A DNA stretch of 64,000 bases from Escherichia phage vB_EcoP_YF01. The stretch lies in the sequence record OQ025076.1; one strand, given 5' to 3'. Positions 53,217-63,871 of this stretch are shown piece by piece (within the stretch, counting starts at the first letter, position 1; every line of letters begins with the position of its first letter). The notes beneath the pieces were generated by a model. That model had not been told where the DNA came from, made no database searches, and worked only from the letters and a program-made list of their open reading frames with translations. The position numbers and the translations under genes are program-made.

Positions 53217-53420
53217 TTAGTAGAACGAACGAATTTCATCCCACACTTGTTCCTGTTCTTTCCTATAAAAAGAAAGTTGGGTCTTGAACATCTCCACTGA
53301 TGATTCAAAGTTTTTGGTTTGTGCAGCTTCAACGAAACGTTCATGTCGGTTGATTTTGCACCGTAGCATTAAATACTTGGCTTCAAGTCTCCGAAGAGCC
53401 TGTCTTTTCTCAAGATTCAC
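53217..53420 (-). CDS. Hypothetical small protein
   Basis: 67 aa ORF between the primase-helicase and GGCT-like genes. Confidence 0.3.
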   Translation of the reverse strand: MNLEKRQALRRLEAKYLMLRCKINRHERFVEAAQTKNFESSVEMFKTQLSFYRKEQEQVWDEIRSFY

Positions 53421-53829
53421 TTTTCAGATACTCTGACCAGTCGCCAGATTCAACCAGAACATCTTGTTCTTCGTCGATATGATAAATCCAAGCGATCACA
53501 GTTTCACCTGAGTCCATCTTAACAGCAATCTGAGTACGCTGATAGAAGCTGTCTTCAGGGCTACGTTTGTTGTAACCTTCCAGACGGTCATACGGACCTT
53601 CCAGACCTGCTTTGTCAGTAGCAAACACTTCTACACGAACAGGCTTATTGTTATTGCTGTGTGCGAGAGAGATGCTCGGGAAGTAGGAACCACCGTAACG
53701 GAACAGATCGAAGTTGTCTTCAGTCCAACCTTCACCAATCGACTTAGCACCAGCTCGGTCATTAACTAGATAGTTAGCTTGACCACGACGAAGAGAACCA
53801 TAAGTTGCTACGTAAATTACTTCTGACAT
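53410..53829 (-). CDS. Gamma-glutamyl cyclotransferase-like (AIG2/GGCT fold) protein
   Basis: N-terminal YVATYGSLRRGQANY matches the YGSLxxG signature of the GGCT/AIG2 family. Confidence 0.6.
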   Translation of the reverse strand: MSEVIYVATYGSLRRGQANYLVNDRAGAKSIGEGWTEDNFDLFRYGGSYFPSISLAHSNNNKPVRVEVFATDKAGLEGPYDRLEGYNKRSPEDSFYQRTQIAVKMDSGETVIAWIYHIDEEQDVLVESGDWSEYLKSES

Positions 53830-53830
53830 T

Positions 53831-54040
53831 TTAAATACCTTTCCAGTCTTTCATGATGTTTTCAATGTAAGCACACTGCTGATCAGTGGCCCCTGTTACA
53901 AACACTTCTAACCCCAACTGCTCGCAGAAGGGATTAAGAATCAATATTCTGGTTTGTCCGTATGAATGGTGCTCTCGGTAGATAACACACCCAGCATTCC
54001 ATACAGAATCAATGGCTTTACTTAATCTTTCATGTTTCAT
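53831..54040 (-). CDS. Hypothetical small protein
   Basis: 69 aa ORF inside the modification cluster. Confidence 0.35.
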   Translation of the reverse strand: MKHERLSKAIDSVWNAGCVIYREHHSYGQTRILILNPFCEQLGLEVFVTGATDQQCAYIENIMKDWKGI

Positions 54041-54093
54041 AAAACCTCCAGTTTATCCGAACTAGCCTCCTATCTCGAAGAGGCTAAAGCAGA

Positions 54094-54300
54094 TTACTCT
54101 GTAATAAAGATTTTGATTACACCACAGATTGATTCTTTACCAAATGTGGCAATAGCTTCCGATTCGCTAGCAGGTCGATCTCCACGCTCATAGAATACTA
54201 TCTGATCAAGCTCACTTCGGAAATAATCAGCGTCAATATCCATAGCTCGCATTTCGCCAGCTGCATTGGTATCTTTAAACAGAACTTTATACTTATTCAC
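54094..54300 (-). CDS. Hypothetical small protein
   Basis: 68 aa ORF; 4-nt overlap with the upstream gene. Confidence 0.35.
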   Translation of the reverse strand: MNKYKVLFKDTNAAGEMRAMDIDADYFRSELDQIVFYERGDRPASESEAIATFGKESICGVIKIFITE

Positions 54301-61326: not shown

Positions 61327-62290
61327 TGTAATACTCCACTAGTTCAGAAAAGAGAGATGAGATTGTGTTACCAACTTCTTCAGTAGTAAGGCCAGAGCTT
61401 GGGCCAGTACGTTGAATTAGTCGGGCGGTAAAGTTTTGTACTGTAATGTTTCCCAACTTGTCGTCTATTGATTCACGTTTGTGACCATAACAGTTGGACC
61501 AGAGTCTTAACCACTCTGACATTGTTTCATACTCGTCCGGGTCTTGATCTTTAGCACGAGCAAATCTTCGTAAGGCATCTTGGTTATGGTTACGAACATA
61601 ACCGTCCTTGTTGTCACCAACACCGAAGGGGTTTTGAACCCACACTTGCTTCGTATATTCATCAGAGTCTACAACCAAAGGAAGGAATGCTGCTGCTGAC
61701 ATATTGTTGTTAATAACAACAGATGTACTCTCGCTACTCCCATTGGCTCTTCCTCGTTGAGACCATCCACCGAAGAAGTCACGACCTAACCCAGCTAACA
61801 CTAGAGCGATACCGATGCGTTTACGCTTCAGCCACTCTTCCCTGTCTTCAATTCCTTCTGCTAGGAAATCCATTCCACGATATTGCCCTTCCAGAATACT
61901 GCGGAAGAGCATAAGTCCTGTGAAGATCTGATCTGCTGGATGCTCACGAAGGTTGACCGCGACACTATTCGCTGAAGTGATCGTAAATACGTCACGATAG
62001 CAAGACATAGAGTTCATAATGTCTGCTGTTTCAACCAAGTTCTTTTCAATTTCAGATGTAACATGACCATGAAAAGAGTGAGTCCAGTAATTCAACATCT
62101 CCAATTGCAAGTTGATATCACGGTTGAAGCGTCTATAACGCCCCTCTTCCGTGATAACTTCGCCATTAATATCGTTTACGCATTGGCCTTGCATGTAGTT
62201 GTGGATACCGAAGCATCCACGACCTAAGAACTTCTGTTCCCCTAAATCCTGTTGAAGATTCAGAGGTACGATCGTTGTGGAGATTGACAT
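61319..62290 (-). CDS. Hypothetical protein (cluster member, unassigned)
   Basis: 323 aa; 8-nt overlap with the downstream gene; no motif recognised. Confidence 0.4.
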   Translation of the reverse strand: MSISTTIVPLNLQQDLGEQKFLGRGCFGIHNYMQGQCVNDINGEVITEEGRYRRFNRDINLQLEMLNYWTHSFHGHVTSEIEKNLVETADIMNSMSCYRDVFTITSANSVAVNLREHPADQIFTGLMLFRSILEGQYRGMDFLAEGIEDREEWLKRKRIGIALVLAGLGRDFFGGWSQRGRANGSSESTSVVINNNMSAAAFLPLVVDSDEYTKQVWVQNPFGVGDNKDGYVRNHNQDALRRFARAKDQDPDEYETMSEWLRLWSNCYGHKRESIDDKLGNITVQNFTARLIQRTGPSSGLTTEEVGNTISSLFSELVEYYND

Positions 62291-62300
62291 AACTAACCTT

Positions 62301-63497
62301 TTATTTTCCTAAAAATAATCCGCTCATAACACCATCCCACTCAGAGGACGGAATCACTGAATACTCCGAACTTTGGTCCAGAGTCCCACTACTAAATCGC
62401 TGAACAATGTTGTAGATGTTGAACAGGTCTTTAGTCTCAGCACGAATGCCGTAGATTAGCCTGTTAGTTGTTCTCTCATTTTTAGACACGCGACGAGTAA
62501 AGTTGATCAGAAGGTTGTCACATTTCAGGATTTCTGATTCACTCTCTACTAAATCAGGGTGCATCACCGGCAAGAACATTGAGTTATTGACTCGTAATTC
62601 TGCTGTTTCATCATTCTCATAATGAATCCACTTAAAGTCTTCATCACGGAAGTGACCACACCCATCTCTGTATGACTGTTGACGCCAAGGCACTTGAAAT
62701 GCTTCAGCATATTTATCAGCCATACCAACCGTAAACAACGACGCTGGGAAGATACAAGCATCCCAATCGTTACCAACCAGAGTTGCTTTCGTTTCACCCA
62801 AGAGGTTAGTGTAAGTGCTAACCATTCGGGAATAAACGTAAGCCTGAAGGATTGTCCAGCCTTCAACCAACCATTTATGAAGGAAGGTTTCAACTTGACT
62901 CTCTTCATCTTCACAATAGAAGGTTCGATCTAACATCAAATAGAACAGACAACGATCAGCAGGAACATTCTCAGTTGCTACCCCCATAAAACCTTTCTCG
63001 TGCCAGCGTAAACAGGAGGGACGATCTTTGTCCACAAATGCTTCCATAGCTTCCAGTACAGCACGAGGTGTAGTTCGATATTCAGGGTTTTTGTCGTTCC
63101 AACGTTCGATATTATTTTTAAGCTCGCCTTCGTAGTCAATAGCACCCCAACCTAAAGCTGCGGATACAGGCTTTTCGTCACGCCAACGTCTAAAACCTAA
63201 CATCTTCATGTGAGTTCCGGAGTTCCAGATATGCTTGATTTTACACATATCCATCTCTCGGCTTAACAGGAACTCTTCCCCATCAGCACTACGAACGTTA
63301 GCTTCTTCATGCCACACTCGAACGTGCATATTCCACCCATGAGTTGCCTCATACATGTTAGGGTCGAAGTAGTCATCATATTCGTCATCGTCTTCATCAA
63401 CGCCACCGTTATAGTTGCGAAGCTGAAGGAACCCATAACAAGGAGGGTTGACCGTTAAAACATTACCTTCAGTATCTTCTAATGTTACTGGAAACAT
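62301..63497 (-). CDS. Hypothetical protein (cluster member, unassigned)
   Basis: 398 aa; acidic N-terminal region; no motif recognised by eye. Confidence 0.4.
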   Translation of the reverse strand: MFPVTLEDTEGNVLTVNPPCYGFLQLRNYNGGVDEDDDEYDDYFDPNMYEATHGWNMHVRVWHEEANVRSADGEEFLLSREMDMCKIKHIWNSGTHMKMLGFRRWRDEKPVSAALGWGAIDYEGELKNNIERWNDKNPEYRTTPRAVLEAMEAFVDKDRPSCLRWHEKGFMGVATENVPADRCLFYLMLDRTFYCEDEESQVETFLHKWLVEGWTILQAYVYSRMVSTYTNLLGETKATLVGNDWDACIFPASLFTVGMADKYAEAFQVPWRQQSYRDGCGHFRDEDFKWIHYENDETAELRVNNSMFLPVMHPDLVESESEILKCDNLLINFTRRVSKNERTTNRLIYGIRAETKDLFNIYNIVQRFSSGTLDQSSEYSVIPSSEWDGVMSGLFLGK

Positions 63498-63508
63498 TAT
63501 ACCAACCT

Positions 63509-63871
63509 CTATTGGTTTTTAATCAACTCAATCGACTTACGGATATAAAGAATATCTCGGAAGTTTCTGTAGTTGTTCATAAATTGGTGCTTCTGGAAAG
63601 TAGCTTCTTCCAGAGCTTTCTTTGCTTCTGCGTAGTTTTTACGGGCAAGATGTACAACCCTCTCTGGTAACACATTTGCACGACGGATGATATACTTGTG
63701 AGCTTTCATGTTACTTTGCTCACGAGTAATCTTACCTTTAGCAACTTTGATACCATTTGCAATCCAAGCAAGTTCTTGCTCAAGCTCGTCGTTGGACATT
63801 CCACCGAGATTTGATGCAACCTTGTTCAGAGTTTCAATATTAACGTTGCCCTTAATGGGACGTGTATTCAT
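63509..63871 (-). CDS. Hypothetical basic protein
   Basis: 120 aa ORF at the upstream end of the minus-strand operon in this window. Confidence 0.4.
   Translation of the reverse strand: MNTRPIKGNVNIETLNKVASNLGGMSNDELEQELAWIANGIKVAKGKITREQSNMKAHKYIIRRANVLPERVVHLARKNYAEAKKALEEATFQKHQFMNNYRNFRDILYIRKSIELIKNQ

Follow-up and report, generated by a model that had tools for sequence, protein, structure and literature searches.

We analysed a 64,000-nucleotide stretch of DNA from Escherichia phage vB_EcoP_YF01 (sequence record OQ025076.1; hereafter the window) and found that the minus-strand gene cluster at 53410–63871 is the prototype of the phiEco32-type amidoligase module, which was described computationally in 2009. 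We read this cluster as a phage-exclusive, cytoplasmic amide-ligation module that uses as acceptor not a DNA base but a metabolite of low molecular weight, an amine or a peptide-like compound, and give this reading a probability of roughly 40%. An earlier sequence-only reading had presented the cluster as a co-oriented, tightly packed group of genes for amide-bond enzymes and as a candidate uncharacterised system. All the genes that it named are in place, and its assignments of glutamine amidotransferase, ATP-grasp and amidoligase families are upheld by profile searches; since the cluster is the prototype of a module already described, it is not a new system.

The cluster encodes three ATP-dependent carboxylate-amine ligases of two folds (all genes of the window given here by coordinates lie on the minus strand). 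Two are glutamine-synthetase-like, namely COOH-NH2_lig, the 'phage phiEco32-like COOH.NH2 ligase type 2' (60520–61326, 268 amino acids; PF14395 2e-8, 34.1 bits versus a cut-off of 25; phrog_3815 3e-118), and Amidoligase_2 (58793–59896, 367 amino acids; PF12224 7e-8, 33.1 bits versus 22; phrog_7469 2e-157). Of the one clear and one tentative amidoligase in the sequence-only reading, the tentative one, COOH-NH2_lig, thus proved real. This protein keeps invariant acidic, histidine and arginine residues (E/E/H/H/R/E/R type) across seven lineages and recurs in 63 phage records with an identity of 99% or more; sequence and profile searches with it against PDB were empty. The third ligase is an ATP-grasp enzyme, RimK-like at the superfamily level (54552–55745, 397 amino acids; phrog_2599 7e-188). 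It contains an acidic linker and ends in a domain of ~80 amino acids. Its Pfam matches are weak (RimK/Dala_Dala_lig_C, 5e-3 to 1e-2), its NCBIfam matches lie far under their cut-offs (MptN 4.5e-8, rimK_fam 8.5e-8), and its best PDB match is RimK (7qys, 1e-3), so that its curated matches are limited to weak ones in the RimK, MptN and Ddl families. The PHROG label 'ribosomal protein S6 glutaminyl transferase' was rejected, with 31.9 bits versus 143.4 for rimK_fam and 25 versus 331 for PRK10446; the alignment to RimK families is limited to the ATP-binding segment 214–253. At the downstream end of the cluster stands a GGACT/AIG2-type gamma-glutamyl(amine) cyclotransferase (53410–53829, 139 amino acids; Pfam GGACT 3.4e-17, 63.6 bits versus 22.8; phrog_2520 1e-44), earlier called GGCT-like, whose translation contains a YGSL motif and the catalytic-type glutamate of LEGY.

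The fifth enzyme is a class-II, N-terminal nucleophile (Ntn) glutamine amidotransferase (GAT-II; 56683–58713, 676 amino acids; GATase_6 1e-14, 55.2 bits versus a cut-off of 27). We corrected its start from GTG at 58635 to ATT at 58713 (58711–58713), 7 nucleotides after AGGTGGA, which gives the length annotated in phage Bas91 and an N-terminus of Met-Cys-Gly-Ile, so that the Ntn nucleophile is present and the earlier assignment to this class is borne out. An N-terminal Met/Ile-Cys is found in 76 of 80 homologues. In the window the ATT stands behind a strong Shine-Dalgarno sequence, and an ATT-Cys start recurs in 10 of the 80, in several distinct lineages (loci including L007, L028, L051 and L086), which suggests that translation is deliberately throttled or regulated. 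The Cys-rich C-terminal region of ~450 residues (447) has three CxxC...CxxC motifs; in the Pfam search it matched no family, and the protein has no SIS or Asn-synthase domain. The GenBank and PHROG label 'L-glutamine-D-fructose-6-phosphate aminotransferase' (GlmS) was rejected, as residues 2–198 alone match and TIGR01135 scores 35.8 bits versus 418. Long variants of the amidotransferase, the ATP-grasp enzyme and Amidoligase_2 contained no extra known domain.

To place the cluster among its relatives, we searched for the COOH-NH2 ligase and compared 87 loci by our own open reading frame (ORF) calling and iterated hidden Markov model searches. The ligase was found by tblastn in 306 phage records, with phages of Escherichia, Pseudomonas (LUZ24/PaP3 group), Vibrio, Aeromonas, Proteus, Salmonella, Cronobacter and Klebsiella and Cellulophaga phage phi14:2, and a scan of IMG/VR found it in at least 565 viral contigs, from which 79 loci were fetched. 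COOH-NH2_lig occurs in 84 of the 87 loci, Amidoligase_2 in 83, GAT-II in 80, the ATP-grasp enzyme in 78, and a 205-residue protein, u205, in 71; GGACT is present in 47, and two further proteins, u323 and u398, in 15 and 9, respectively. In most loci the order is nearly invariant: the five-gene core of COOH-NH2_lig, u205, Amidoligase_2, GAT-II and ATP-grasp, then GGACT where present, and then a primase-helicase, which follows the module in at least 48 loci. In annotated regions the module lies directly upstream of a primase or primase-helicase in Bruynoghevirus, Zobellviridae and one Crassvirales phage; Grimontviridae have the same module genes, and the stretch fetched from them has no annotated primase-helicase. 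The gene order is shared by all these groups and by dozens of uncultured contigs. Such clustering is far beyond chance. Among one genome each of 100,044 bacterial and archaeal species we found 17 ligase loci, all on short or metagenome-bin contigs of phage size, and no non-phage context for the ligase. Neither this family nor, by extension, the module was seen in cellular chromosomes, and both are effectively confined to phages. A natural knock-out was sought in kuraviruses with small genomes, which keep the cluster.

The strongest evidence for what the module does comes from its genes for gamma-glutamyl cleavage. In 28 loci a protein of 210 amino acids, encoded immediately upstream of the ligase, is a gamma-glutamyl hydrolase of the Peptidase_C26 family (6.9e-18), which takes the place of GGACT in most of the loci that lack it. 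When the count was limited to the 52 loci whose core is complete and whose flank spans 3 kb or more, we found GGACT only in 29, Peptidase_C26 only in 17, both in 1 and neither in 5, a near mutual exclusion (Fisher's exact p = 2e-8, a figure that overstates independence because the loci are related). Since two unrelated folds that share only the cleavage of gamma-glutamyl amides occupy one slot, this exchange points to a pathway in which a gamma-glutamyl amide is made and afterwards removed.

Pathways with such a handle are known, among them those of butirosin (BtrJ/BtrG), Puu/Pau polyamine catabolism (PuuA/PuuD) and ergothioneine (EgtA/EgtC), in which an ATP-dependent ligase forms a gamma-glutamyl amide and a later enzyme removes it. 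The removing enzymes, BtrG (an AIG2-like cyclotransferase), PuuD (Peptidase_C26) and EgtC (GAT-II-like), are of types that all occur in the phage module or its variants. The likeness is at the superfamily level and not one of orthology (amidotransferase versus EgtC 2.5e-4, far under the cut-off), and the phage module differs in having no carrier protein, oxidase or decarboxylase partner. By this model, the phage ligases would assemble a short adduct, amide-linked and containing a gamma-glutamyl group, on an acceptor amine or carboxylate; a polyamine, a cofactor tail and an envelope precursor are candidates for this acceptor. The amidotransferase could supply ammonia from glutamine, so that an activated carboxylate becomes a carboxamide, or it could, as EgtC does, hydrolyse a gamma-glutamyl amide. 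The gamma-glutamyl group would serve as a removable handle, stripped by GGACT with release of 5-oxoproline or, in other lineages, by Peptidase_C26. u205 would be a non-catalytic adaptor, u323 and u398 an additional and possibly enzymatic family, and the pathway would be active in the replication phase.

Several points weigh against this model. No product, substrate or phenotype of the module is on record; family assignments are at the superfamily level, with the ATP-grasp enzyme and the amidotransferase far under every curated family cut-off; and the pattern of GGACT and Peptidase_C26 is drawn from related, non-independent loci. A simple metabolite pathway also leaves unaccounted for the strictly conserved, non-enzymatic u205 and the conserved orphan u323, and the constant adjacency of replication genes, together with the restriction resistance reported for Gordonclarkvirinae, suits a DNA-directed role equally well.

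The 10.5-kb region is 95–97% identical to ~70 genomes of phiEco32-group phages from Escherichia and Shigella (Kuravirus, Gordonclarkvirinae), with SU10, NJ01, YW01 and the BASEL phage Bas91 among the named close relatives (megablast query coverage of 94%, in three pieces). GenBank entries already carry for these genes the labels glutamine amidotransferase, ATP-grasp enzyme, amidoligase, COOH.NH2 ligase and gamma-glutamyl cyclotransferase. The phiEco32 module gave Pfam PF14395 (COOH-NH2_lig) its name; the COOH-NH2_lig of the window is 100% identical to the phiEco32 protein and has the same partners (ATP-grasp, GAT-II, Amidoligase_2 and AIG2/GGACT), making this the same system. Nothing differs in kind, and the window adds an inserted HNH endonuclease. 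This phiEco32-type phage amidoligase gene neighbourhood (PF14395, PF12224) was reportedly described by Iyer, Abhiman, Burroughs and Aravind in 2009. The statement of the sequence-only reading that such combinations had been predicted computationally to make gamma-glutamyl or peptide-like products is correct. We found no experimental work on the module in the literature. New here are the order of the five-gene core, the spread of the ligase over at least 565 viral contigs, its near absence from cellular genomes, the replacement of GGACT by Peptidase_C26, the paralogy of u323 and u398, and the recognition of u205 and u323/u398 as conserved components.

Four larger proteins of the cluster, at 59893–60510, 61319–62290, 62301–63497 and 63509–63871 (205, 323, 398 and 120 amino acids; u205, u323, u398 and u120), have no Pfam family, and nor do its small ORFs except one (DUF7195); the sequence-only reading had counted five or more unassigned proteins. 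The core protein u205 has no enzyme signature and looks like a non-catalytic beta-barrel adaptor, built from two small beta-barrels and a flexible loop. Its most conserved motif, R-Q-[WY]-[KR]-[KR]-G, falls in this disordered loop. In an uncultured phage (locus L079, 10707–12344) u205 reaches 545 amino acids through an insertion of ~225 residues between the beta-barrel halves, and this insertion belongs to no known family. Searches of PDB by sequence and profile found nothing for u205, u323 or u398, and Pfam scans of 42 relatives of u205 and 28 of u323 gave chance matches only.

A protein of this kind encoded between the ligases could also be the substrate or adaptor of a protein-tagging system, in which a protein of the phage or the host receives glutamate or a short peptide from the ligases, much as in polyglutamylation by RimK or pupylation by PafA/Dop. 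A RimK-like ATP-grasp enzyme accompanied by two glutamine-synthetase-like ligases recalls the PafA/Dop pair, since pupylation (PafA, Dop, Pup) likewise combines two glutamine-synthetase-like enzymes of paralogous fold with an amide step on glutamine or glutamate, and gamma-glutamyl-epsilon-lysine is an established substrate of GGACT enzymes. However, u205 contains no invariant Lys, Glu or Gln that could act as acceptor (Lys and Arg interchange within the motif) and its termini vary, the C-terminus included. A role for it as a Pup- or LysW-like carrier was rejected because it has neither a conserved terminus nor an acceptor residue. No Pup-like small protein was found, the small ORFs having no conserved C-terminal Gln/Glu, there is no proteasome context, and u323 could not be linked to either ligase family by hhalign. 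Taken together, we consider protein tagging rather unlikely.

The orphan u323 (61319–62290) is possibly an enzyme, with invariant Cys26 (in CFG), Arg130 and Tyr231 and a nearly invariant Arg233; Glu187 is invariant among close relatives only. Marine phages encode a homologue of it in the corresponding place (hhalign 96.6%, E 5e-10), its family comprises 26 clusters among 1.84 billion representatives, and its predicted structure (pTM, the predicted template modelling score, 0.76) matches only uncharacterised proteins from other module-bearing phages. The neighbouring u398 (62301–63497) is a divergent paralogue of u323 (hhalign of the u323 family versus u398 87–90%, E 2e-6 to 4e-6), the two forming one orphan family as judged from these profile comparisons. 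By tblastn u398 was found in only 97 Escherichia and Shigella phage records and is restricted to Gordonclarkvirinae. By hhalign, u398, like u323, was linked to neither ligase family, and LUZ24 proteins at the same positions were not linked to u323.

We also weighed whether the target could be DNA or the nucleotide pool, with the ligases adding to a base a side chain derived from glutamate or glutamine and so shielding the genome from restriction. The sequence-only reading had found DNA hypermodification the most attractive possibility, a preference that the evidence below does not sustain; we regard this explanation as unlikely, if with a real chance of being right. The BASEL authors report that restriction-modification systems have strikingly little effect on Gordonclarkvirinae, for which no modification pathway is known. 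The window contains 35 EcoRV, 7 EcoRI, 9 EcoKI and 104 EcoP1I sites, and the module always adjoins replication genes. In the crAss-like Cellulophaga phage phi14:2 a UDG-superfamily protein (locus L003, 12285–12995; 3.5e-12) lies on one side of the module and a primase on the other. This protein is the sole DNA-base-directed enzyme adjoining the module in the loci examined. The invariant Cys of u323, with its Arg, Tyr and Arg, is of the residue kind that we associate with pyrimidine-activating enzymes. Thymidine hypermodification clusters of other viral contigs (Lee et al., PMC8989533) are likewise multi-enzyme and near replication genes, and some carry amidoligase and amidotransferase domains. 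Their defining enzymes, 5-HMUDK (the 5-hmU DNA kinase), aGPT-Pplase and dUMP hydroxymethylase, are in contrast undetected here, where the phage has ThyX. Pfam searches of the cluster, including 28 members of the u323 family, likewise found no DpdA/TGT or glycosylase-like protein, which agrees with the earlier statement that no member could be assigned as a base-transferring enzyme.

The nucleotide-metabolism genes that had made DNA attractive as a target are 4–20 kb from the cluster; module and replication genes share one uninterrupted minus-strand block. Profile matches confirmed the primase-helicase (51400–53190; DnaB_C 1e-10 and Toprim), which is the conserved downstream neighbour, as well as the dCTP deaminase (48991–49524) and the dNMP kinase (33332–34231; phrog_139 9e-55), the sole P-loop kinase found and 19 kb away. 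ThyX (46219–46875) is indeed a variant, with KHQ in place of RHR and a one-residue insertion (KHQVGFSWNEMSRRY versus RHRIA-SYNELSGRY of the Thermotoga enzyme; motif RHRxxS...SxR), which could be taken in favour of altered DNA; yet it passes the equivalog cut-off of TIGR02170 (129.6 versus 87.9). No HAD-like phosphatase, which had been listed among these neighbours, was found, and the PHROG 'phosphatase' at 35278–35718 is a Macro domain. The dCTP deaminase, ThyX, thioredoxin and dNMP kinase are an ordinary set for the supply of deoxythymidine triphosphate, with no base-replacement signature, and in modules of LUZ24-like phages and Zobellviridae the fetched flanks showed none of these four, neither a thymidylate synthase nor a dCTP deaminase among them. 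The idea of the BASEL authors that the DNA contains deoxyuridine was dropped as a reading of the cluster because the phage encodes ThyX. These authors also tied a nucleotidyltransferase of CCA-adding type (49534–50904; head domain of CCA-adding/poly(A) polymerases 2.5e-4) to possible DNA modification; it more likely serves tRNA repair or maturation.

Site composition and the behaviour of phage DNA also argue against a modified base. PstI (17 expected) and SacI sites (14 expected), CACGTG and CGTACG are wholly absent from the window and GATC stands at 0.45 of expectation, an avoidance that implies past exposure of the genome to restriction. AGGCCT and TGGCCA are wholly absent as well (5–17 copies expected for the absent sites overall), and EcoRV, NdeI and XbaI sites are at expectation. 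Native DNA of the module-bearing, LUZ24-like phage tf was cleaved by HaeIII, could be ligated and served directly for Sanger sequencing, and thus behaves normally. The core proteins are acidic to neutral rather than basic and have no recognisable nucleic-acid-binding domain. Other anti-restriction candidates are present in the window, where 45803–46202 encodes two small proteins, one matching the 'anti-restriction nuclease' phrog_4452 (1.5e-31) and the other a zinc-finger protein with a faint match to the Lar restriction-alleviation family (0.027); both could aid restriction resistance. We are more doubtful still of the specific proposal that the module and u323/u398 carry out a new covalent modification of DNA or nucleotides, with a glutamate- or glutamine-derived amide side chain and no known base-activating enzyme, which would explain the restriction resistance of Gordonclarkvirinae. 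If true, the same chemistry would be implied in hundreds of LUZ24-like phages, Zobellviridae, Grimontviridae and some crAss-like phages.

Ligases and an amidotransferase could instead act on the cell envelope. In passages of two later papers (PMC10580990, PMC11706807), Iyer et al. 2009 are cited as proposing that the amidoligase and amidotransferase of phiEco32 alter the cell wall against superinfection, or make secondary metabolites. For the former, the enzymes would change the peptide chemistry of peptidoglycan, and all hosts named in the phage records found are Gram-negative. Peptidoglycan stem peptides contain gamma-D-glutamyl bonds and depend on ATP-dependent ligases and on amidotransferase-dependent amidation, and the peptidoglycan peptide ligase Ddl is itself an ATP-grasp enzyme. 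However, no match to a Mur-ligase, penicillin-binding or lipid-II-related family was found for the module proteins, whose genes are part of the replication block and do not adjoin lysis or structural genes, and we found no experimental support for this proposal in the literature. We judge an envelope target improbable. An argument against peptidoglycan from occurrence in an archaeal virus was dropped, because that virus encodes a peptidoglycan amidase and its assignment to an archaeal host is doubtful.

The remaining genes of the cluster are small, inserted or lineage-specific. Three small ORFs (53831–54545; 69, 68 and 82 amino acids) have no Pfam family, and homologues of the 82-residue one occur in 9 of the 87 loci, all of Gordonclarkvirinae type. 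Two more lie at 55748–56186, one of 74 amino acids and one of 77 with DUF7195 (55953–56186; PF23825 4.7e-17), a family found directly after the amidotransferase gene in 15–21 loci. The free-standing HNH homing endonuclease (56173–56679; HNH_3 3e-14) is missing from Bas91 and most relatives and is an insertion outside the module. HNH_3 homing endonucleases also occur on the minus strand at 43703–44197 and 38077–38559, the three being scattered in the early and replication block. The basic u120 (63509–63871, isoelectric point 10; phrog_11370) was found in 8 loci, all of Gordonclarkvirinae type, and its membership of the module is uncertain. A proteomics table of SU10 places the cluster proteins among early gene products.

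Inside the cluster, signals for promoters or terminators did not rise above chance. The nonamer TAATGTATA, which we take to be a phage sigma-factor promoter element, has 4 copies in the window (0.57 expected), at 9988 and 26899 (+) and at 37077 and 44551 (-), each oriented as the genes around it are transcribed; within the window no copy stands in the cluster or upstream of it. Further downstream neighbours on the same strand are a 3'-5' exonuclease, a Dps/ferritin-like protein, thioredoxin, PhoH, DNA polymerase A and, farther on, a sigma factor. A stand-alone NAD-binding Nlig-Ia domain of DNA ligase (45477–45806; 8e-35), the Macro domain named above (1.3e-10) and a YspA/SLOG domain (34222–34614; 2e-6) are tied to NAD and ADP-ribose biology and may form a counter-defence set.

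The module is among the most widespread multi-enzyme modules of virulent phages still without a known product. Carriers of the ligase infect E. coli, Pseudomonas, Vibrio, Aeromonas, Klebsiella and marine bacteria, and phage therapy makes use of several of these groups. The replacement of GGACT by Peptidase_C26 provides a concrete handle on the pathway, namely a gamma-glutamyl amide intermediate. The identity of the product would account for five to eight conserved genes per genome, might also explain the indifference of Kuravirus to restriction, and could reveal a new chemistry of ATP-dependent amide ligation.

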